Source: an uncultured Bacilli bacterium (GTDB taxonomy: Bacteria > Bacillota_I > Bacilli_A > RF39 > UBA660). From it: 64,000 nt of DNA. Position numbers and translations under genes: made by a program. Positions 7,264-49,140 of this stretch are shown piece after piece (within the stretch, counting starts at the first letter, position 1; each line of letters opens with the position of its first letter). The stretch lies in the NCBI GenBank assembly GCA_910576795.1, contig CAJTIX010000003.1, positions 31,026 to 95,025 of the forward strand. The letters run 5' to 3'. The notes beneath the pieces were generated by a model that ran no database searches, was not told the DNA's origin, and was given only the letters and a program-made list of their open reading frames with translations.

Positions 7264-7279
7264 TTTCTATCACCTAACT

Positions 7280-7362
7280 AAAAAAGCACACACATTTAGT
7301 GATCCTTAAGGCTGCTATTTTCCAATCCTGACCTGGTTCAAATATAAATGTTGTGCAATAAC
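7280..7362 (-). ncRNA. ffs: signal recognition particle RNA, small (4.5S) type
   Basis: Minus strand reads ...GCACAACAUUUAUAUUUGAACCAGGUCAGGAUUGGAAAAUAGCAGCCUUAAGGAUCACUAAAUGUGUGUGCUUUUUU. It carries the conserved SRP domain IV motif ACCAGGUCAGG...GGAA..AGCAGCC. A closing helix pairs GCACAACAUUUA with UAAAUGUGUGUGC (one bulge). A U-run follows, and a TTGATA / TATATA-like promoter lies upstream. Confidence 0.65.
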
Positions 7363-7400
7363 AATATATATTATTTTTAATAAAATATCAACTATTTAGA

Positions 7401-15216: not shown

Positions 15217-16569
15217 TTATTTAATTTGTTCGATAATTTTATTGATTGAAAGTTCTAATTCTGGATTGGATTTAATCTGTGTTTTAATTTTATCTACAGA
15301 ATGCATAACAGTGGTATGATCTTTTCCACCAAATTCAATTCCAATTTTAGGAAGGGACTCTTCTAAAAAGGTCCTACATATGTACATAGCTACTTGTCTT
15401 GGAACCGCGATAGAAGCAGATCGCCTTTTACTTTTGAGTTCTTCTACCGTTATATTGTAATGATTTGCGACCAATTGTTGCACTTGATCTATTTTATTTT
15501 TTGATATGATACTTTTTACAAAATAATCTTTTAAAGCTTCAATTGCCAAATCTAAAGTGATATCACTACCGTTCATCATAGTCGCATAAGCAACCACTCT
15601 TGTAATGGCACCCTCTAATTTCCTAATATCACTCGTACAATTACTTGCAATATATTCTTTTACCTCTTGTGGAAAATTGCTCGCAAGCATATGCCCTTCT
15701 ATTTTATTATCAATAATATTCATTCTTAAATTAAAGTCTGGTTGAAGGATATTAATTGTAAGTCCCCAGTTAAATCGGGTTCTTAATCTGTCTTCCAATA
15801 ATTTTAAATCATCAGGAGACCGATCAGAAGAAATAATGATTTGTTTATTATTTCCATATAAGTCATTAAATGTATTAAAGAATTCTTGTTGTGTTTGATT
15901 GGCATTTCCAAGATATTGAATATCATCAATAATTAAGACGTCAATATTACGATATTTTCTTTTAAAGATCTCAACATTGTCAAAATTATTCCCATCTTTA
16001 TTTTTTTTATTAATGCCAATAAAATCTGATACGAATTTTTCACTGGTCACGTATAATACCGTTTTTTTACTATTTTTTATAATATAATTTCCAATCGCGT
16101 GCATTAAATGGGTTTTTCCCAGTCCACTATTTCCATATATAAATAATGGATTATACATATACCCTGGATTTTCCGCCACTGCTAGAGCCGTCGCTTGTGC
16201 AAATTTATTACTCTCTCCTACAATAAAATTATCGAATGTGTATAATGAATTCAAATTGGTTTCAAAATTTGTATTTGCAGGAACTCCAATTTCATCGGTG
16301 TTAATTTCTACATTAAAATCTACTTCTTCTTTTGTATAGTACTCAAATTTAAAATTCGTACCTGAAATTTCTGAAAAAAGATCTTGAATCATTTCATTAT
16401 AATTTTCTTTCAAGTTTTTTTTATGAATGTGCATCGGAACAATTACTTTCGCTGTATTGTCTTGTAATTCATGTAATTCCGTTTCCGAAAACCAAGTTTC
16501 ATAAGCAATGGGAGAAAGTTCTTCTTTCATTTTATCCAAAAAAGAGTTCCAAAGTTTTTTGGTATCCAA
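15217..16569 (-). CDS. dnaA: chromosomal replication initiator protein DnaA
   Basis: 450 aa. AAA+ Walker A GNSGLGKTH and a C-terminal DnaA-box-binding HTH. TTG start with a GGAGGTG RBS. Confidence 0.95.
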   Translation of the reverse strand: MDTKKLWNSFLDKMKEELSPIAYETWFSETELHELQDNTAKVIVPMHIHKKNLKENYNEMIQDLFSEISGTNFKFEYYTKEEVDFNVEINTDEIGVPANTNFETNLNSLYTFDNFIVGESNKFAQATALAVAENPGYMYNPLFIYGNSGLGKTHLMHAIGNYIIKNSKKTVLYVTSEKFVSDFIGINKKNKDGNNFDNVEIFKRKYRNIDVLIIDDIQYLGNANQTQQEFFNTFNDLYGNNKQIIISSDRSPDDLKLLEDRLRTRFNWGLTINILQPDFNLRMNIIDNKIEGHMLASNFPQEVKEYIASNCTSDIRKLEGAITRVVAYATMMNGSDITLDLAIEALKDYFVKSIISKNKIDQVQQLVANHYNITVEELKSKRRSASIAVPRQVAMYICRTFLEESLPKIGIEFGGKDHTTVMHSVDKIKTQIKSNPELELSINKIIEQIK

Positions 16570-16639
16570 ATCTTACACCTCCATCCCTGATTTGATACCT
16601 ATATTGTACATTATATTGATAGAAAATAAAAGAAAAATT

Positions 16640-16900
16640 GTCAAAAATTGTGGAAAAATAATAAATCACATAGTTATCCACATATAAAATAATTTAAATA
16701 TATGAAAGATTGCAGTTTATCCACTAAAATGTGGAAAATTTTATAAATAATATATGGCTAGGTGTATTTATTATTCACAATTTTGTGGAAAAAGTAAAAA
16801 ATAATGATAATTAAATAGAAATTGATGTGCATAATTGTGTGTAATATGGAATAAGGTAGAAATAGTGGATGTGGAAAATGTTTATAAGAAAAAAATGTTA
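16640..16900. other. oriC: oriC DnaA-box cluster
   Basis: DnaA boxes: TGTGGAAAA at 16649-16657; TTATCCACA (perfect) at 16674-16682; TTATCCACT at 16717-16725; TGTGGAAAA at 16730-16738, 16784-16792 and 16870-16878; plus overlapping AGTGGAT. Flanked by divergent dnaA and rpmH. Confidence 0.75.
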
Positions 16901-16908
16901 GAAAATAT

Positions 16909-16937
16909 TTGACAAATCAACCAAATGTATATATAAT
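16909..16937 (+). promoter_or_regulatory. sigma-A promoter of rpmH-rnpA operon
   Basis: TTGACA at 16909-16914, a 17-bp spacer and TATAAT at 16932-16937. An AGGAGGTG RBS lies before the ATG at 16981. Confidence 0.6.
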
Positions 16938-16980
16938 GTTAAAAGCAAAGCAAAAATTTTAGCACAGGAGGTGTATATAA

Positions 16981-17103
16981 ATGAAGAGAACTTATCAACC
17001 AAATAATCGAAAAAGAAGTAAAAAGCAAGGTTTCTTAGCTCGTATGAAAACGAATATTATCAATAATAGAAGAAGAAAAGGACGTAAAGTTTTATCACAT
17101 TAA
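16981..17103 (+). CDS. rpmH: 50S ribosomal protein L34
   Basis: 40-aa [43 protein letters not shown]. Too short for the ORF track but has a strong RBS and the canonical position before rnpA. Confidence 0.85.
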
Positions 17104-17108
17104 TAATC

Positions 17109-17136
17109 AACCACTGCGAAATAACAGTGGTTTTTT
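17109..17136 (+). terminator. rho-independent terminator / attenuator after rpmH
   Basis: Hairpin CCACTGcgaaataaCAGTGG followed by TTTTTT. Confidence 0.55.
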
Positions 17137-17155
17137 ATATAAGGAGTGTAATCCA

Positions 17156-17506
17156 ATGAAAAAAATAAATATTATTAAAGAAAACGAAACTTATAATAGA
17201 ATGATTCAAAAAATCAAACCATATAAATATAAAGATTACTTAATATATATAGAAAGAAATCAATCTCCAGTTTACCAATTTGGTTTCTCTGTTGGAAAAA
17301 AAGTGGGAAATGCCGTTACACGAAATAAAATAAAAAGGCAGTTAAAAAATATAATTGACCAAAAAAGCTATCAAAATCACTTTTATTGTATTATAATGGT
17401 AAGGAAGAGTATTTTAGAAAAACCATATAGCGAAATGGAAACAGATCTATTATATGCCTTTTCTAAATTAAATATTATAAAGGAGAATCCAGATGAAAAA
17501 AAATAA
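17156..17506 (+). CDS. rnpA: ribonuclease P protein component
   Basis: 116 aa basic protein with the RNR motif (KVGNAVTRNKIKRQLK). Conserved rpmH-rnpA-yidC order. Confidence 0.85.
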   Translation: MKKINIIKENETYNRMIQKIKPYKYKDYLIYIERNQSPVYQFGFSVGKKVGNAVTRNKIKRQLKNIIDQKSYQNHFYCIIMVRKSILEKPYSEMETDLLYAFSKLNIIKENPDEKK

Positions 17507-40034: not shown

Positions 40035-40724
40035 ATGATGCAAAAAGATGAATACCGATATATAGAATATGAAATGTATCAAAAAACAAAAGATACATTA
40101 TTTCAAACAATTGTAAATGAAGATGTAAATCCAGATCTTAACCATATTGCAAAATTTATTTATGAATTAACATTACAATCACCAAATCATCCAAATTTCT
40201 ATAACAATGTAGGAGACTTAAAACAAAAATATCATATCGATTTCAAAATGAATTATAATACCTGGAGTTATCAAATTACGTATCACAATAATACCTTTTT
40301 ATTTCGTCTACTTTCTCCATTCATTCATGATGCCAAAATGCAAAGGGAATTATTTTCGGAAGATAGAAGAAGTAAATGTCATGAAAGAACAATCGCATTA
40401 TTCTCTCAAAATGTAAAATTGGTAACAGGATATGTCAATGATCTACAATTTCCACATTTAAAAACAATTCATAGTTGGCTGGAACAAACGATTGATCATG
40501 AAGAATATGTAATCGATTACGTGATGAACATGGTAATTTTAAAAAGAGATTACGATCGACTAATGAATGTCGATAAAATCAATGAATTAAAGGATCCTAG
40601 TATTATCGAAACTTATCAACAAACCTTTCTCATTCCTGGAAAACTTTATTGTTTAGCAGGAAATGAAATAGCAGAAGAAATCAAACAAAAAATCTTCACT
40701 AATGACATTTTTTCTAAGATATAG
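40035..40724 (+). CDS. hypothetical protein (229 aa)
   Basis: Intact ORF with an AAAGGGGATG RBS. No motif recognised. Immediately upstream of a FemAB-family gene. Confidence 0.45.
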   Translation: MMQKDEYRYIEYEMYQKTKDTLFQTIVNEDVNPDLNHIAKFIYELTLQSPNHPNFYNNVGDLKQKYHIDFKMNYNTWSYQITYHNNTFLFRLLSPFIHDAKMQRELFSEDRRSKCHERTIALFSQNVKLVTGYVNDLQFPHLKTIHSWLEQTIDHEEYVIDYVMNMVILKRDYDRLMNVDKINELKDPSIIETYQQTFLIPGKLYCLAGNEIAEEIKQKIFTNDIFSKI

Positions 40725-40750: not shown

Positions 40751-42019
40751 ATGTTAGAGAATTTAACAGAACAAGAATTCAATCAATTTTCAAAAAATCA
40801 TCCAAATAGTATGTTTTTTCAATCTTCCTATTGGGGGGACTTAAAAGAATCCACTGGATGGAAAAAACATTTGGTTGGAATCAAAGAAAATGGTAAAATT
40901 GTAGGCGCAACACTCCTGTTATGCAAAAAAATCCCAGTATTAAATCAAAATATGTTTTATGCTCCAAGAGGATTTTTATTAGATTACCAAAATCAAAATA
41001 TAATTTCTTTGTTCACCAAAGAAGTTTCACATTATGTGAAAAAAAACAAAGGTATCTTTTTCAAAATCAATCCGCCTATTTTATATCAACAAAGAAACAT
41101 AGATGGAGATATTGTTGTAGATGGTACACAAAACAAATCTTTAGTAGAATTCTTAAAAAAAATAGGATATCAACACAATGGCTTTACCATTCATTATGGA
41201 AAAGATTTGGAACCAAGATGGGTATCTATTTTAAATATTGAAAATCAAACAGAAGAACAAATATTTCAATTATTTCGAAGTTCACATAAAAGAAAAATCA
41301 AAAAATCATTAGGTGGATGGTTATCTTTAGAACAGGTAACTACTGATGATTTAGAAAAGTTGGAAATCTATAAAAAAATAATGGCACATACAGGAAATAG
41401 AAGAGGGTTCATTGATCGTGCTGAAGATTATTACAAAAAAATGTATGATGTATTTTCCAAAGATTACCAAATTCAAATTGTATTAATCCGCTTAGACTTA
41501 CAAAAATATCATGGTCATATTTTAAAAGAATTAGAAGAAATCACGAACAAAATAGAGAATTTATCACATAAAAAAGAAAGTGAAAAACAAGAGTTGACCA
41601 AAAGAATAGAACGTTTGAAAAATGAAATAGAAGAAGTGAAAAATACAATCCAAACAGAGGGCAATTCAATTTACATTACAACAGGTCTATTTATGTTATT
41701 TGGTTCTCAACTCACCTATTTATTTGGGGGTTCTTATGACAAATATATGAAATACTTTGGTGCTTATTATATGCAATGGGAAATGATAAAATATGCCATT
41801 CAAAATCACTATAAAGAATATAATTTCTATGGAATTACAGGAGAATTTAATGAAGATTCTAAAATGTATGGATTATTTGATTTCAAAAGAGGATTTCATG
41901 CTGATGTGACAGAATATATAGGAGAGTTTACTTATATTGTAAATAAACCATATTATTTTCTATATAATAGAATGTTTACTATTTATAAAAAAATCAAAAA
42001 ATGGAGGATGAAAAAATGA
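40751..42019 (+). CDS. FemAB-family peptidoglycan interpeptide-bridge aminoacyltransferase
   Basis: 422 aa. N-terminal FemAB-like region (FFQSSYWGDLKE...MFYAPRGF). Central coiled-coil insert (LEEITNKIENLSHKKESEKQELTKRIERLKNEIEEVKN), as in FemA/FemX. Confidence 0.7.
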   Translation: MLENLTEQEFNQFSKNHPNSMFFQSSYWGDLKESTGWKKHLVGIKENGKIVGATLLLCKKIPVLNQNMFYAPRGFLLDYQNQNIISLFTKEVSHYVKKNKGIFFKINPPILYQQRNIDGDIVVDGTQNKSLVEFLKKIGYQHNGFTIHYGKDLEPRWVSILNIENQTEEQIFQLFRSSHKRKIKKSLGGWLSLEQVTTDDLEKLEIYKKIMAHTGNRRGFIDRAEDYYKKMYDVFSKDYQIQIVLIRLDLQKYHGHILKELEEITNKIENLSHKKESEKQELTKRIERLKNEIEEVKNTIQTEGNSIYITTGLFMLFGSQLTYLFGGSYDKYMKYFGAYYMQWEMIKYAIQNHYKEYNFYGITGEFNEDSKMYGLFDFKRGFHADVTEYIGEFTYIVNKPYYFLYNRMFTIYKKIKKWRMKK

Positions 42020-42742: not shown

Positions 42743-43657
42743 ATGAAAAAGGTAATCATTGCCTCTATTCTTATTTTAGTCGTACCATATTTGATTGTAA
42801 CCTTATGCATCAAAGAAGAAAAAATGAATTTTCAATTTGGTTCTAACTTAATGATCCGTGTCAAAAGAAATGCTACTGGAAATATTGAAAAAGTACCATT
42901 TGAAGAATATATAACAGGTGTACTTGCCGGAGAAATGCCTGTTAATTTTGAACTAGAAGCTTTAAAAGCACAAGCAGTCGCCGCTCGTAGTTATGCGATG
43001 AAAAAAATGGAACAAAATCAAAATAACGAATTTGATGTAGTCGATACAGTTTCGAACCAGGTATATTTGGATGATGCTACCTTAAAAGAAAGATGGAAAG
43101 ATGATTATCCCGAAAAAATCAATAAAATCAAAACAGCGATCACAGAAACAAATGGAGAATATCTCACATATGATGGTGCAGTGATTCAAGCTTTTTTCTT
43201 TTCCACTAGTACAGGGAAAACAGAAAATGTAGAAGAAGTATTTGTGCAAGCATTGCCTTATTTGAGAAGTGTGGATTCTAGTTGGGATGCAGAAGTGTCA
43301 CCAGTTTTTCAAGTCACAACAGAATTCAGTTTAGCGGATTTTTATAGTAAATTAAATCTTCCTTATCAAGAAAGTTTACAGATAGAATTTACCAAAACTA
43401 CTAGTACAGGAAGAGTGAAAGAGCTACTCATAAATGGAACACCATTTAAAGCAAGTGATGTATCTTCTAATTTGAATTTGCGTTCTACTTTTTTCTCTTT
43501 TGAACAAATTGGTAATAATGTAAAAATAGAAACCAAAGGATTTGGACATGGTGTTGGATTAAGCCAATATGGTGCGCAAGCAATGGCAAAAAAAGGATAT
43601 ACCTATGATCAGATTTTAAAACATTATTATCAAGGTGTTGAAATTTCAAAAATTTAA
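42743..43657 (+). CDS. spoIID: stage II sporulation protein D (SpoIID/LytB domain)
   Basis: 304 aa. N-terminal TM segment and a SpoIID/LytB domain (EEYITGVLAGEMPVNFELEALKAQAVAARSYA). Confidence 0.8.
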   Translation: MKKVIIASILILVVPYLIVTLCIKEEKMNFQFGSNLMIRVKRNATGNIEKVPFEEYITGVLAGEMPVNFELEALKAQAVAARSYAMKKMEQNQNNEFDVVDTVSNQVYLDDATLKERWKDDYPEKINKIKTAITETNGEYLTYDGAVIQAFFFSTSTGKTENVEEVFVQALPYLRSVDSSWDAEVSPVFQVTTEFSLADFYSKLNLPYQESLQIEFTKTTSTGRVKELLINGTPFKASDVSSNLNLRSTFFSFEQIGNNVKIETKGFGHGVGLSQYGAQAMAKKGYTYDQILKHYYQGVEISKI

Positions 43658-43711: not shown

Positions 43712-44344
43712 ATGACAGAAAGAAGACTGAAAAAGTCAGTAATCTATGGAATTTACAGTTTAGGAATTATTGCTTTAATAGGTACAATTTATTTAATTGA
43801 AAGTTCGATTGGAAAAAACAACTTCAAAGAAAATGATGATTCTACTTATGTGACAAAAACAATATTTGACGATAGTATACCTGTTGTTGCAGATGATGTG
43901 AAAATCTTAAGACCTTATAGTGATGCTGAAATTAGGGTAATTAAAAGTTATTATGACTATAAAGCAGATGAAGAATCACAGAGAAATGCGATTATTTTCC
44001 ATGAAGATACCTATATGCAAAGCAGCGGAGTTGCTTATGGTGGAAAGGAAAATTTTGAAGTCAAAGCTGTGTTGGATGGAACAGTAGTGGATGTCAAAGA
44101 AGATCAACTACTTGGAAAAATCGTTGAAATCAAACATAGCAATGACATGATTAGTGTCTACCAAAGTTTATCTGAAGTAACTGTAAGTAAAGATGCAGTC
44201 ATCAAACAAGGAGATGTAATTGGAAAAAGTGGAAATGCCAATATATCTACAGAGTTAGGAAATCATTTATATTTTGAATTGATTGTCAAAGGTACGACTG
44301 TAAATCCAGAAGAATATTTTGAAAAATTGGTGAAAGAACTATAA
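43712..44344 (+). CDS. spoIIQ: SpoIIQ-like membrane protein with degenerate LytM (M23) domain
   Basis: N-terminal TM segment, and a position right after spoIID as in Clostridia. In the M23 core the His motifs are degenerate: KHSNDM replaces the HxxxD spacing, and NHLYFEL replaces the HLH motif. Confidence 0.5.
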   Translation: MTERRLKKSVIYGIYSLGIIALIGTIYLIESSIGKNNFKENDDSTYVTKTIFDDSIPVVADDVKILRPYSDAEIRVIKSYYDYKADEESQRNAIIFHEDTYMQSSGVAYGGKENFEVKAVLDGTVVDVKEDQLLGKIVEIKHSNDMISVYQSLSEVTVSKDAVIKQGDVIGKSGNANISTELGNHLYFELIVKGTTVNPEEYFEKLVKEL

Positions 44345-44376
44345 AAAAATCGATATAGAACTATCGATTTTTTATA

Positions 44377-45246
44377 TCAATTGGGTATTATCTTTTTCAT
44401 ATAAGATTCTGCTTCTTTTCTAAAATCATGTAATAGTCGAGAATTATTATAAAATCTATCATTGGTTTCACAGGTAATATCAAGTAGTTCTGCGAGATCC
44501 ATATGTGCTTTTAGGCTACTTTCATGGAGTTGTTTTATTTGAACTAGTAATTGTTTATATGATAACCTATCAAAAATCATATTAGAGATGGGTGTATAGT
44601 ATAGAATAAGTTTGTCATCACCGTTTTCATATTCTTCTGCTGATAAGCCATCCGCTAAATAAAAAAATATCTGATTAAATATATCATGAATATAATATTG
44701 ATTATGATATTGAATTAGATTGGCTGCATGAGTTGCTCTAATGAAATTAAATTTTGGATCCCTATTTGGATTTAAGGAATCATTTTCTTGCACATCATAA
44801 CATCGGTAGCTCTGACAAAACAGCCCTATTTTTTGAAAAATATCTTGATGCAAACTGGAAATATGCCTACAACATCCTTGCCTATGAATTACATCAAATC
44901 CCAAAAACCCATATAAATCGAAAGATCTATCAGTCAATTCTTTATAAGGATATACTGGATTACCGACAGAAAGATAGCCTCGCATAATTAGGTTTTCAAC
45001 TACTTGAGAATAACTAATAGAATTATCATCTATCCCAATTTCTTTTACAATAACTGCTGCAAGTGAAATCAACTTATTGTAATATTCTATATTTTCATAA
45101 AACACATATTTTGCTACTTCAATCTGTAATGATATGTCATTTTGTGATTCCACAATTTTCTGCATCAGCATCGATTGTGGATCTTCTAAAGCTTTTAAAT
45201 CATGTTTAATGAATTCATACATCTGTTTTTGATGAGAAATATTCAT
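44377..45246 (-). CDS. hypothetical protein (290 aa) with HRQGCCRH motif
   Basis: ATG at 45246 with an AGGAGGAA RBS. A perfect sigma-A promoter lies upstream. Conserved-looking Cys pair and several His residues. No family assigned. Confidence 0.55.
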   Translation of the reverse strand: MNISHQKQMYEFIKHDLKALEDPQSMLMQKIVESQNDISLQIEVAKYVFYENIEYYNKLISLAAVIVKEIGIDDNSISYSQVVENLIMRGYLSVGNPVYPYKELTDRSFDLYGFLGFDVIHRQGCCRHISSLHQDIFQKIGLFCQSYRCYDVQENDSLNPNRDPKFNFIRATHAANLIQYHNQYYIHDIFNQIFFYLADGLSAEEYENGDDKLILYYTPISNMIFDRLSYKQLLVQIKQLHESSLKAHMDLAELLDITCETNDRFYNNSRLLHDFRKEAESYMKKIIPN

Positions 45247-45271
45247 AGAGATTCCTCCTTGATGAGAACAT

Positions 45272-45300
45272 ATTATAACACCTAGCATTTTCAATGTCAA
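45272..45300 (-). promoter_or_regulatory. consensus sigma-A promoter for the 44377-45246 gene
   Basis: On the minus strand: TTGACA (45300-45295), exactly 17 bp, then TG-n-TATAAT (45280-45272). Confidence 0.55.
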
Positions 45301-45409
45301 AATTATTTTGTGTATTTCATACAGTAGATAGAATTCATAAAATAAACCTATTTCATTTTGCGTATAAAAAATATACATTACAAATAAAATGAATTAGGGG
45401 GAACATAAA

Positions 45410-45661
45410 ATGAATCATATCAATGAAAGAGTTTTAAAAGAAACGGAATTTATTTTAAAAACGGGACATACTATTAGAGAAATCGCATTACACTTTCATG
45501 TATCTAAAAGTACAGTACATAAAGATTTACATGAAAGATTATGTCAAATAGATCAAAAGAAATATGAAAAAGTAAAAGAAATTTTAAAATATCATACTGA
45601 TATTCGTCATATTAGAGGTGGCGAATCGACTAAGAAAAAATATTTAGAACAAATATCATAG
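45410..45661 (+). CDS. spoIIID: stage III sporulation protein D (mother-cell transcription factor)
   Basis: 83 aa. The block HFHVSKSTVHKDLHERL...KEILKYHTDIRHIRGGESTKKKY matches the SpoIIID HTH and its basic tail. Confidence 0.8.
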   Translation: MNHINERVLKETEFILKTGHTIREIALHFHVSKSTVHKDLHERLCQIDQKKYEKVKEILKYHTDIRHIRGGESTKKKYLEQIS

Positions 45662-45681: not shown

Positions 45682-46671
45682 ATGTTTGCAAAAGATATCG
45701 GAATTGATTTAGGAACCGCGAATGTATTAATTTATATAAAAGGACAAGGAGTTGTATTAAATGAACCAAGTGTGGTTGCGATTGATAGCGAAACAAAAAA
45801 ACCACTTGCAGTTGGAGAGAAAGCTAGAAATATGCTTGGGAGAACACCAGGGAAAGTACACGCTATAAGACCCATGAAAGATGGAGTCATTGCGGATTTT
45901 GACGCAACGGAAATTATGCTCAATCATTTTATACGTGAAGTAAATGCAAAGAGTATGTTAACACGACCTCGTATTTTAATTTGTTGTCCATCTAATATTA
46001 CACAAGTAGAAAAAAATGCGATCAAAGAAGCAGCGGAGCGAACAGGAGCACGCAAAGTGTTTCTAGAAGAAGAACCAAAAGTGGCGGCTATTGGAGCTGG
46101 AATGGATATTTCCAAACCAAGTGGGAATATGGTAATTGATATTGGTGGTGGAACTACTGATATTGCCGTTTTATCCATGGGAGATATTGTCAACAGTACT
46201 TCTATTAAAATAGCGGGAAATACATTTGATAACGATATCATTAAATATATTAAGAAAAAATATAAATTACTGATAGGAGACCGTACAGCAGAAGAAATTA
46301 AACTAACCATCGGTAATGTATATCCAGATAGTATCAAAGAAAAGATGGAAGTTCGTGGTAGGGACTTAGGAACAGGCTTACCACATACCATTACTCTAGA
46401 TAGCGAGGAAATTGCAGAAGCACTAAAAGAAAGTGCAGATGTGATTGTTCATACCGCAAAAAATGTATTAGAACAAACTCCACCAGAATTATCGGCAGAT
46501 ATTATTGATAAAGGTATTGTGGTAACTGGTGGTGGAGCCTTAATACGTGGACTCGATCAATTATTGGCTAAAGAACTAAAAGTTCCTGTAAGAATTGCAG
46601 ATAGTCCGTTAACCTGTGTTGCAGAGGGAACAGGAATTTTACTGAGCAATCTACATTTGATTGACAAATAG
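45682..46671 (+). CDS. mbl: rod-shape determining protein MreB/Mbl
   Basis: 329 aa actin-like ATPase (DLGTANVLIY, phosphate-binding loops). Adjacent to spoIIID as mbl is in Bacillus. Confidence 0.85.
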   Translation: MFAKDIGIDLGTANVLIYIKGQGVVLNEPSVVAIDSETKKPLAVGEKARNMLGRTPGKVHAIRPMKDGVIADFDATEIMLNHFIREVNAKSMLTRPRILICCPSNITQVEKNAIKEAAERTGARKVFLEEEPKVAAIGAGMDISKPSGNMVIDIGGGTTDIAVLSMGDIVNSTSIKIAGNTFDNDIIKYIKKKYKLLIGDRTAEEIKLTIGNVYPDSIKEKMEVRGRDLGTGLPHTITLDSEEIAEALKESADVIVHTAKNVLEQTPPELSADIIDKGIVVTGGGALIRGLDQLLAKELKVPVRIADSPLTCVAEGTGILLSNLHLIDK

Positions 46672-48669: not shown

Positions 48670-49029
48670 TCAGTATTCTCGATAGCTACCCATTTTTTTG
48701 ATTGGATCTACTTGTTCAATAAGACCATTATGTAGCGGACTTAATGAAAGCATATTTCCAAATTTTACTTGCTGTGTTTGGATAAATTTATGTGCTTCTT
48801 CAGGACTACAAATAGGTTCTTCTGGAACAACACCTATCAATTCAGGATGTGTATTTAAAATGTGCATTTGTGCATATAGTTGTAATTCTGGTGTTGGTGG
48901 AATTATATTATTATTAGTAATATAATTAACACAATCAAATACAGAGTATAGATTTTGCGTAAGTATAGCATTGCATGTAATAGATAAAACCGTTTCTAGT
49001 TCAAATTCTCTTATATCCTTTTGTTTCAT
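48670..49029 (-). CDS. hypothetical protein (119 aa)
   Basis: ATG at 49029 with a GGAGGATTG RBS. No motif recognised. Confidence 0.45.
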   Translation of the reverse strand: MKQKDIREFELETVLSITCNAILTQNLYSVFDCVNYITNNNIIPPTPELQLYAQMHILNTHPELIGVVPEEPICSPEEAHKFIQTQQVKFGNMLSLSPLHNGLIEQVDPIKKMGSYREY

Positions 49030-49140
49030 AAACAATCCTCCTTCTGGAGTTATATTATAACACATATTAGTATATATGCAACAATTATATATTAATATAA
49101 AAAATATATGTTATAATATAACTATCAGGGAGGTAAACAC

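Follow-up and report, generated by a model that had tools for sequence, protein, structure and literature searches.

A probable transglutaminase-fold enzyme encoded by a self-contained gene inserted between spoIIQ and spoIIID in a clade of spore-forming Bacilli

What does a gene on the opposite strand do in the middle of a sporulation cluster? In the 64,000-nucleotide stretch of contig CAJTIX010000003.1 from an uncultured Bacilli bacterium that was analysed here (the window), the series spoIID, spoIIQ-like gene, spoIIID, mbl is broken between its second and third members by an antisense gene, here called X. An earlier note on this DNA had described X as a protein of no recognisable family with a possible Cys-His-Asp, transglutaminase-like centre, and had offered two explanations for its position, i.e. 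a regulatory antisense arrangement or a recent insertion. From the analysis reported below it appears probable that X represents a new family of transglutaminase-fold enzymes, and that the gene is an autonomous, fast-evolving unit which was inserted once and is not a regulator of sporulation. The parts of the gene are as follows.

44377-45246, minus strand: coding sequence of gene X, 289 amino acids plus stop
45254-45259, minus strand (read 45259-45254): ribosome-binding site (RBS) AGGAGG, 7 nt 5' of the ATG
45272-45300, minus strand: sigma-A-type promoter of X, with -35 element TTGACA at 45300-45295, a 17-nt spacer, the extended -10 TG at 45280-45279 and -10 element TATAAT at 45277-45272

The minus-strand open reading frame (ORF) that encloses X runs from 44377 to 45378, and the usable start within it is the ATG at 45246 (MNISHQKQ...), the same Met with which the orthologues begin. 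A 333-residue reading of the ORF was rejected, since the upstream extension contains the promoter and cannot be the coding start. The protein assigned by the earlier note to the opposite strand is thus on that strand, albeit with a length of 289 rather than 290 residues, and both the AGGAGG site and the HRQGCCRH motif (residues 120-127) are where that description leads one to expect them. Neither a signal peptide nor a membrane segment is present in the protein.

The absence of a recognisable family holds at the sequence level, as X gave no match in searches against Pfam, NCBIfam and the PDB sequences, and a profile built from 132 relatives retrieved only coiled-coil noise from the PDB sequences. 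A word-indexed homology search with the X profile yielded 9 proteins only. An exhaustive HMMER scan with a six-sequence profile against 1.84 billion cluster representatives returned 282 relatives, 174 of them at E<=1e-10 and most of them 260-320 residues long and matched over their full length; where these proteins have any name at all it is 'hypothetical protein [Bacilli bacterium]'. As delineated by this profile, the family of X had no name before and comprises about 280 clusters at 50% identity; it is predicted to lie within a known enzyme superfamily. In the alignment of 132 sequences Cys126 and His173 are each conserved in 129 and Asp188 in 126, Tyr56 is invariant, and Gly90, Ser93, Gly116, Arg127, Tyr185 and Pro219 are nearly so (residues are given in the true numbering of X; the alignment numbering is one higher).

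With the same alignment as input, AlphaFold2 produced a model of X with a pLDDT of 95.5 and a pTM of 0.93, whereas a run with the shallow six-sequence alignment reached a pLDDT of 35 and was discarded. In the model the Cys opens a helix (127-140), the His opens one strand (174-181) and the Asp closes the next (184-189; alignment numbering in all three cases), so that the predicted core is of the canonical papain/transglutaminase topology, preceded by a four-helix domain at the N-terminus and followed by a three-helix bundle at the C-terminus. When the model was submitted to Foldseek the best match was 9crn (E 8e-4), followed by Rad4 and by arylamine N-acetyltransferases (NATs). Further matches in the structure comparison were 4xz7 'TGase' (score 8.9), the putative cysteine protease 3isr (7.6), LapG (7.1) and TgpA (6.9), and lower ones were NATs (6.0-6.8), human TG2/TG3 (6.6) and PNGase (6.0). 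Among the 132 relatives, sub-threshold Pfam matches were to the transglutaminase-like DUF553 in six cases (best 5e-4) and to NAT in three, while X itself has no match at threshold to Transglut_core (PF01841) or to related curated transglutaminase-like families. The conserved triad, the placement of its residues (Cys at the start of a helix, His and Asp on adjacent antiparallel strands), and the similarity to solved members all argue for a transglutaminase-like/papain-like fold, with Cys126, His173 and Asp188 as the putative catalytic triad. The suggestion of a transglutaminase-like centre is thereby supported at the level of the fold by fold search and conservation, and not for any curated sequence family.

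How X came to its position can be read from its relatives. A word-indexed search covering 5.8 billion proteins found only five, at 98, 54, 45, 44 and 44% identity, and two further metagenome-assembled genomes, labelled 'uncultured Bacillales bacterium', contain the gene. Wherever the sequence suffices, X in the carrier loci (L001-L009) has the M23 gene on one side and spoIIID on the other, at the identical site and in the identical orientation. Outgroup genomes were located by means of the SpoIIQ-like protein, and three lineages were examined, in which that protein is 82% (L022-L024), 75% (L021) and 61% (L019/L020) identical to the one in the window. All three share the order FemAB-RpiB-...-SpoIID-SpoIIQ-SpoIIID-MreB-GT4-DUF421, with 66-70 bp between spoIIQ and spoIIID, and a hidden Markov model (HMM) of the X family detected no copy of X in these loci. 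The earlier note had held that finding the gene, with a known annotated function, in every relative would refute its proposal; the synteny comparison instead shows three lineages without it. A metagenome scan with SpoIIID patterns gave no confirmed relative. In a neighbour-joining tree of the concatenated neighbours SpoIID, SpoIIQ, SpoIIID and MreB the six carriers form one clade, with L022, L021 and L019 as successive outgroups, and the X alleles of the carriers are monophyletic within the wider family.

X is thus a single, derived, clade-specific insertion between spoIIQ and spoIIID. The X-less loci L021 and L019 have a block AGGT(A/C)TAAAA ... RBS directly after the spoIIQ terminator, and the carriers keep the same block before spoIIID, so that the presumed promoter region of spoIIID was not damaged by the event. 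The insertion is not very recent, given that several species-level lineages share X and that dS (the synonymous substitution rate) is about 1 when neighbouring genes are compared in the more deeply separated pairs of carriers; of the proposed recent insertion, the insertion stands and the recency does not. The base composition of X (29.3% GC, with 20% GC at third codon positions, GC3) is equal to that of the neighbouring genes.

The promoter of X has the class expected of a housekeeping gene and not of a sporulation-sigma target, as all 12 positions of the two hexamers match the sigma-A consensus and the spacer ends in TGT, providing the extended -10 TG. It is therefore just as the earlier note had described it, and the comparison of carriers adds that TTGAC(A/T)-N17-TGTTATAAT is unchanged across six loci in an alignment of the X-spoIIID intergenic regions in which spacer and upstream sequence vary. 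The promoter is invariant in these six loci even though the X coding sequences have diverged to 44-70% identity, which is good comparative evidence that it functions, and a purine-rich RBS is found at a constant position upstream of X in all six. Perfect TTGACA-N17-TATAAT sites occur twice in the window, compared with 0.09 expected from shuffles; the other one lies in the probable origin region (16909-16937, plus strand). The site upstream of X is probably a real and strong sigma-A promoter, from which X would presumably be transcribed in vegetative cells.

The neighbouring genes and the elements between them and X are listed here in the order of their positions.

42743-43657, plus strand: SpoIID
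43712-44344, plus strand: SpoIIQ-like protein with a degenerate M23 (LytM) domain (Pfam Peptidase_M23, 7.7e-22); its gene converges on X
44344-44373, both strands: bidirectional hairpin resembling an intrinsic terminator (A-run, ATCGATA stem, loop, TATCGAT, T-run)
45345-45409, plus strand: conserved spoIIID-proximal upstream block (GTATAAAA ... AATTAGGGGG), from the conserved columns of the X-spoIIID intergenic alignment
45410-45661, plus strand: spoIIID, divergent from X (Pfam SpoIIID, 1.2e-27)
45682-46671, plus strand: MreB/Mbl

Pfam and NCBIfam confirmed the flanking spoIID, SpoIIQ-like, spoIIID and mbl genes, and operons of the spoIID-spoIIQ-spoIIID kind are common among spore-formers (published survey, bioRxiv 10.1101/2022.02.25.481979). 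The label 'Clostridial-type' previously given to the cluster does not fit, as the M23 domain of the SpoIIQ-like protein lacks the metal ligands of active M23 enzymes (SSGVAYG in place of HxGxD, NHLYFE in place of HxH). With 153 bits against NCBIfam SpoIIQ, below the cut-off of 250, it is, judged by these motifs, of the degenerate 'bacillar' type and not of the intact clostridial type. The block at 45345-45409 presumably holds the promoter and RBS of spoIIID, and the -35 element of X lies about 60 bp from it.

The geometry of transcription differs from that pictured in the earlier note, where X was thought to collide head-on with the sporulation genes on both flanks. With respect to spoIIID the gene is divergent and transcription leads away, and X converges solely with spoIIQ, with a gap of 32 bp between the two stop codons that contains the hairpin. 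Folding of this hairpin gave free energies (dG) of -10.6 and -11.2 kcal/mol for the two strands (z -3.2 and -4.2), and the ATCGATA/TATCGAT stem is kept, with a variable loop, in all six related loci. It had been missed by a consensus terminator scan because the stem holds just 2 G-C pairs. In its structure it resembles an intrinsic terminator of the bidirectional kind, which would end transcription in both directions.

The carriers also show how unequally X and its neighbours have evolved. Identity to the window protein is 82-86% for SpoIID, 87-92% for SpoIIQ, 90-96% for SpoIIID and 88-95% for MreB, compared with 44-54% for X. The ratio of non-synonymous to synonymous rates (dN/dS, Nei-Gojobori) is 0.25-0.50 for X and 0.02-0.12 for the four neighbours, with comparable dS, and in the pair L007-L008, for example, X has a dN of 0.227, compared with about 0.015 for SpoIID, SpoIIQ and MreB. 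Non-synonymous evolution of X is thus 5-15 times faster than that of its neighbours, and because dN is raised and dS is not, this points to relaxed or diversifying selection on X rather than to an increase in mutation rate or the import of alleles. The best-conserved segments among the carriers are NSISYSQVVENLI (residues 76-88) and the C-terminal ETNDRFYN...LLxDFRxEA. A separate case of divergence in the same neighbourhood is a FemAB-family gene (window 40751-42019, with orthologues in L001-L009), which shows 60-65% identity and a dN/dS of about 0.2, whereas the sporulation neighbours exceed 82% identity; the carrier species may therefore differ in the chemistry of their peptidoglycan cross-bridges.

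Taken as a whole, the proposed course of events would be that the ancestor of a small, low-GC (29% GC) clade of spore-forming Bacilli received X once, in the short spoIIQ-spoIIID gap, as a self-contained transcription unit complete with sigma-A promoter, RBS and terminator. The product would be a transglutaminase-like/papain-like enzyme, soluble and located in the cytoplasm, in which Cys126, at the helix N-terminus and activated by His173 and Asp188 of the adjacent beta-hairpin, would attack a carbonyl (of a peptide or amide bond, or of a thioester) to form a thioester acyl-enzyme. This intermediate could be resolved by water, as in a peptidase, amidase or deamidase, or by an amine, as in acyl transfer or cross-linking. 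Both catalysis and reaction type are predicted here from the model, and a stand-alone, vegetatively expressed thiol enzyme of the cytoplasm, acting through a Cys126 thioester, is the best-supported candidate function. X would stand outside the sporulation programme and its position would be a historical accident, with the spoIIID promoter block intact and the terminator insulating X from spoIIQ; after the insertion the protein would have diverged fast while keeping its catalytic core.

Several observations weigh against this interpretation. The fold rests on a predicted structure, as there is no sequence-level match to a curated family or a solved structure. In one allele (P0003; L004 7503-8300, also in L005 and L006, i.e. 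in three independent samples) a 26-residue in-frame deletion removes Asp188, and the same allele reads GRCRH for GCCRH, with Arg replacing the first Cys, so that in this lineage the enzyme may be dispensable, decaying or inactivated. Moreover, the high dN/dS of X could reflect a weak function. Carried to its end, this line of thought makes X a functionless or decaying passenger under relaxed selection, for which one may cite dN/dS values of up to 0.5 between close pairs, the lost catalytic Asp, and close relatives that live without X at a locus not apparently disrupted. However, every carrier has an intact ORF although dS amounts to about 1, the dN/dS ratio stays well under 1, and the triad, the motifs NSISYSQ and ETNDRFYN, the promoter, the RBS and the terminator are invariant, and we consider a mere passenger very improbable. 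An arms race would account for the divergence in another way, with X as a conflict gene (phage defence, anti-toxin, or inter-strain effector/immunity) kept in standing expression by its invariant consensus promoter. The 5- to 15-fold excess of amino-acid divergence at similar dS and the clade-restricted, patchy occurrence of X at an insertion site are what such a gene would show, and a methyltransferase/HATPase block just downstream of mreB in L007 indicates that the neighbourhood accepts accessory DNA. Against this, PADLOC and PHROGs gave no consistent match among the 132 members (only scattered, weak, single-member ones), no phage link or phage structural relative was found in BFVD, no conserved partner gene stands beside X in any context, the gene-wide dN/dS is below 1 and the base composition is native, which leaves this explanation improbable. 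Scarcely better placed, and likewise doubtful, is the idea that the family is under diversifying pressure, either as a constitutive defence/immunity protease or amidase or as a tracker of fast-changing cell-wall chemistry, and that its fixation beside spoIIID was itself selected, e.g. by tying the spoIIID promoter to vegetative transcription or to supercoiling; the divergence of FemAB can be set beside the cell-wall version.

The kind of enzyme and the meaning of its position have to be weighed as well. X could be NAT-like and work by a ping-pong mechanism, in which acyl-CoA acylates Cys126 and the acyl group is then passed to a small-molecule or peptide amine. The Cys-His-Asp triad and core fold of NATs, the resemblance in size (about 280 residues) and in the N-terminal helical domain, the three family members with sub-threshold matches to Pfam Acetyltransf_2, and the fact that the best viral structural matches (weak ones, in BFVD) are giant-virus NAT-like acetyltransferases all fit this view, but the NAT profile of Pfam matches no member at threshold, the family as a whole does not conserve the motifs PFENL and RGGxC, and the modelled C-terminal domain is a three-helix bundle and not the NAT alpha/beta lid. 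We regard a NAT as unlikely, and the structural ranking favours the transglutaminase-like/putative protease side. A regulatory arrangement, in which strong vegetative transcription of X represses or times spoIIQ or spoIIID (by convergent interference, or by supercoiling at the divergent promoter) or X acts on sporulation proteins, would give a reason for the position between two sporulation genes kept in six lineages, for the closeness of the -35 element to the spoIIID upstream block and for the convergence on spoIIQ over 32 bp. Yet X points away from spoIIID, all carriers have the bidirectional terminator between X and spoIIQ, the X-less sister spore-formers keep the same spoIIID upstream block, and the promoter is of the sigma-A type. 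Distant relatives of X (about 22-36% identity) are unlinked to sporulation genes, lying downstream of a GT2 glycosyltransferase gene near the S10 ribosomal operon, after comEC, or between FTHFS and SDR genes, each with a sigma-A-like -10 upstream and with no recurring partner gene. The antisense-regulatory suggestion of the earlier note loses its footing in these unrelated contexts, nothing was found that speaks for a role of X in sporulation or in regulation by antisense transcription, and we hold such a role to be extremely improbable. With its sigma-A promoter, and absent from three outgroup spore-former lineages that have the same cluster, X does not appear as a member of the sporulation regulon. 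The reading as a transglutaminase-fold enzyme in an autonomous, once-inserted gene is the one we retain as probable.

The wider window places X with respect to replication. The GC skew changes sign near 16-17 kb, from about -0.15 to +0.15; the minus-strand ORFs to the left of the flip fit dnaA, dnaN, recF, gyrB and gyrA by size and order only, and plus-strand genes follow to the right. The window probably spans oriC (region 15217-17500), and X, on the minus strand about 28 kb to the right of the probable origin, is therefore oriented head-on to replication, as are very few other genes. A rise in mutation rate caused by head-on conflict between replication and transcription was rejected as the source of its divergence, as dS is similar in X and its neighbours and dN alone is raised. 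Another head-on ORF (window 48670-49065, minus strand, 131 residues) lies downstream of the DUF421 gene and has no Pfam or NCBIfam match.

Other parts of the locus vary between lineages. Each lineage carries its own unannotated ORFs in a variable slot between rpmE (L31) and femAB (window 40035-40724; L001 11386-12657; L004 11958-15555; L007 12102-12618), and in the window the occupant is a 229-residue protein that matches nothing in Pfam or NCBIfam. In L007 (385-6045) genes for an N6/N4 DNA methyltransferase, a 795-residue HATPase_c_3 protein and a 591-residue unknown protein stand in the place of GT4 and DUF421 downstream of mreB, in what looks like a defence-island-like insertion. An unannotated gene for 280-289 residues, rejected as an X homologue by means of the X-family HMM, lies between rpiB and spoIID in the abundant outgroup lineage (L019 3077-3919, L020 3077-3946), at the place that a small DUF1146 gene takes in the window and in some other relatives. 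The window also contains a bacterial small signal recognition particle RNA (Rfam RF00169, 59.5 bits) at 7269-7367 on the minus strand.

With these results about 280 clusters of 'hypothetical proteins' from gut-type Bacilli, none of them covered by a curated family, receive a predicted fold and a probable catalytic triad. They also show that the widely conserved spoIID-spoIIQ-spoIIID-mbl cluster can take up a complete foreign transcription unit and keep its spoIIID upstream block. With a frozen promoter and terminator around a protein that evolves about ten times faster than its neighbours, X lends itself to telling relaxed from diversifying selection and to studying the effects of head-on orientation, while the understanding of sporulation control is unchanged by it.

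Among known systems, a tempting analogy is with Tgl of B. subtilis, a sigma-K-dependent spore-coat transglutaminase. Like Tgl, X is predicted to be an enzyme of a spore-forming bacterium that depends on a cysteine and is papain-like in the broad sense, but X has a sigma-A consensus promoter and is absent from sister spore-formers. With the NATs (PF00797) X shares the triad, the fold, a similar length, a helical N-terminal domain and recurrent structural matches; it differs from them in lacking their signature motifs and alpha/beta lid, has never reached the Pfam threshold for membership, and scores lower against their structures than against the transglutaminase-like ones.

The nearest systems are bacterial proteins with a transglutaminase core, i.e. 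S. pyogenes TglA (PDB 9crn), for which a literature search on TglA/9CRN found no published description of function, 4xz7 'TGase', the Cytophaga protein 3isr, TgpA of P. aeruginosa and LapG of Legionella. X is set apart from them by its four-helix N-terminal domain, its C-terminal three-helix bundle and the missing Pfam Transglut_core match, and as a predicted cytoplasmic, stand-alone protein it differs from LapG and TgpA, which are periplasmic or membrane-linked. The model of X nevertheless has, as these proteins do, the Cys at a helix N-terminus and the His and Asp on the beta-hairpin that follows, and its sequence pattern is of the same type, with G-x-C-R-H leading into a hydrophobic helix, then N-H-x-x-N-L-I-x-Y and later Y-x-x-D.
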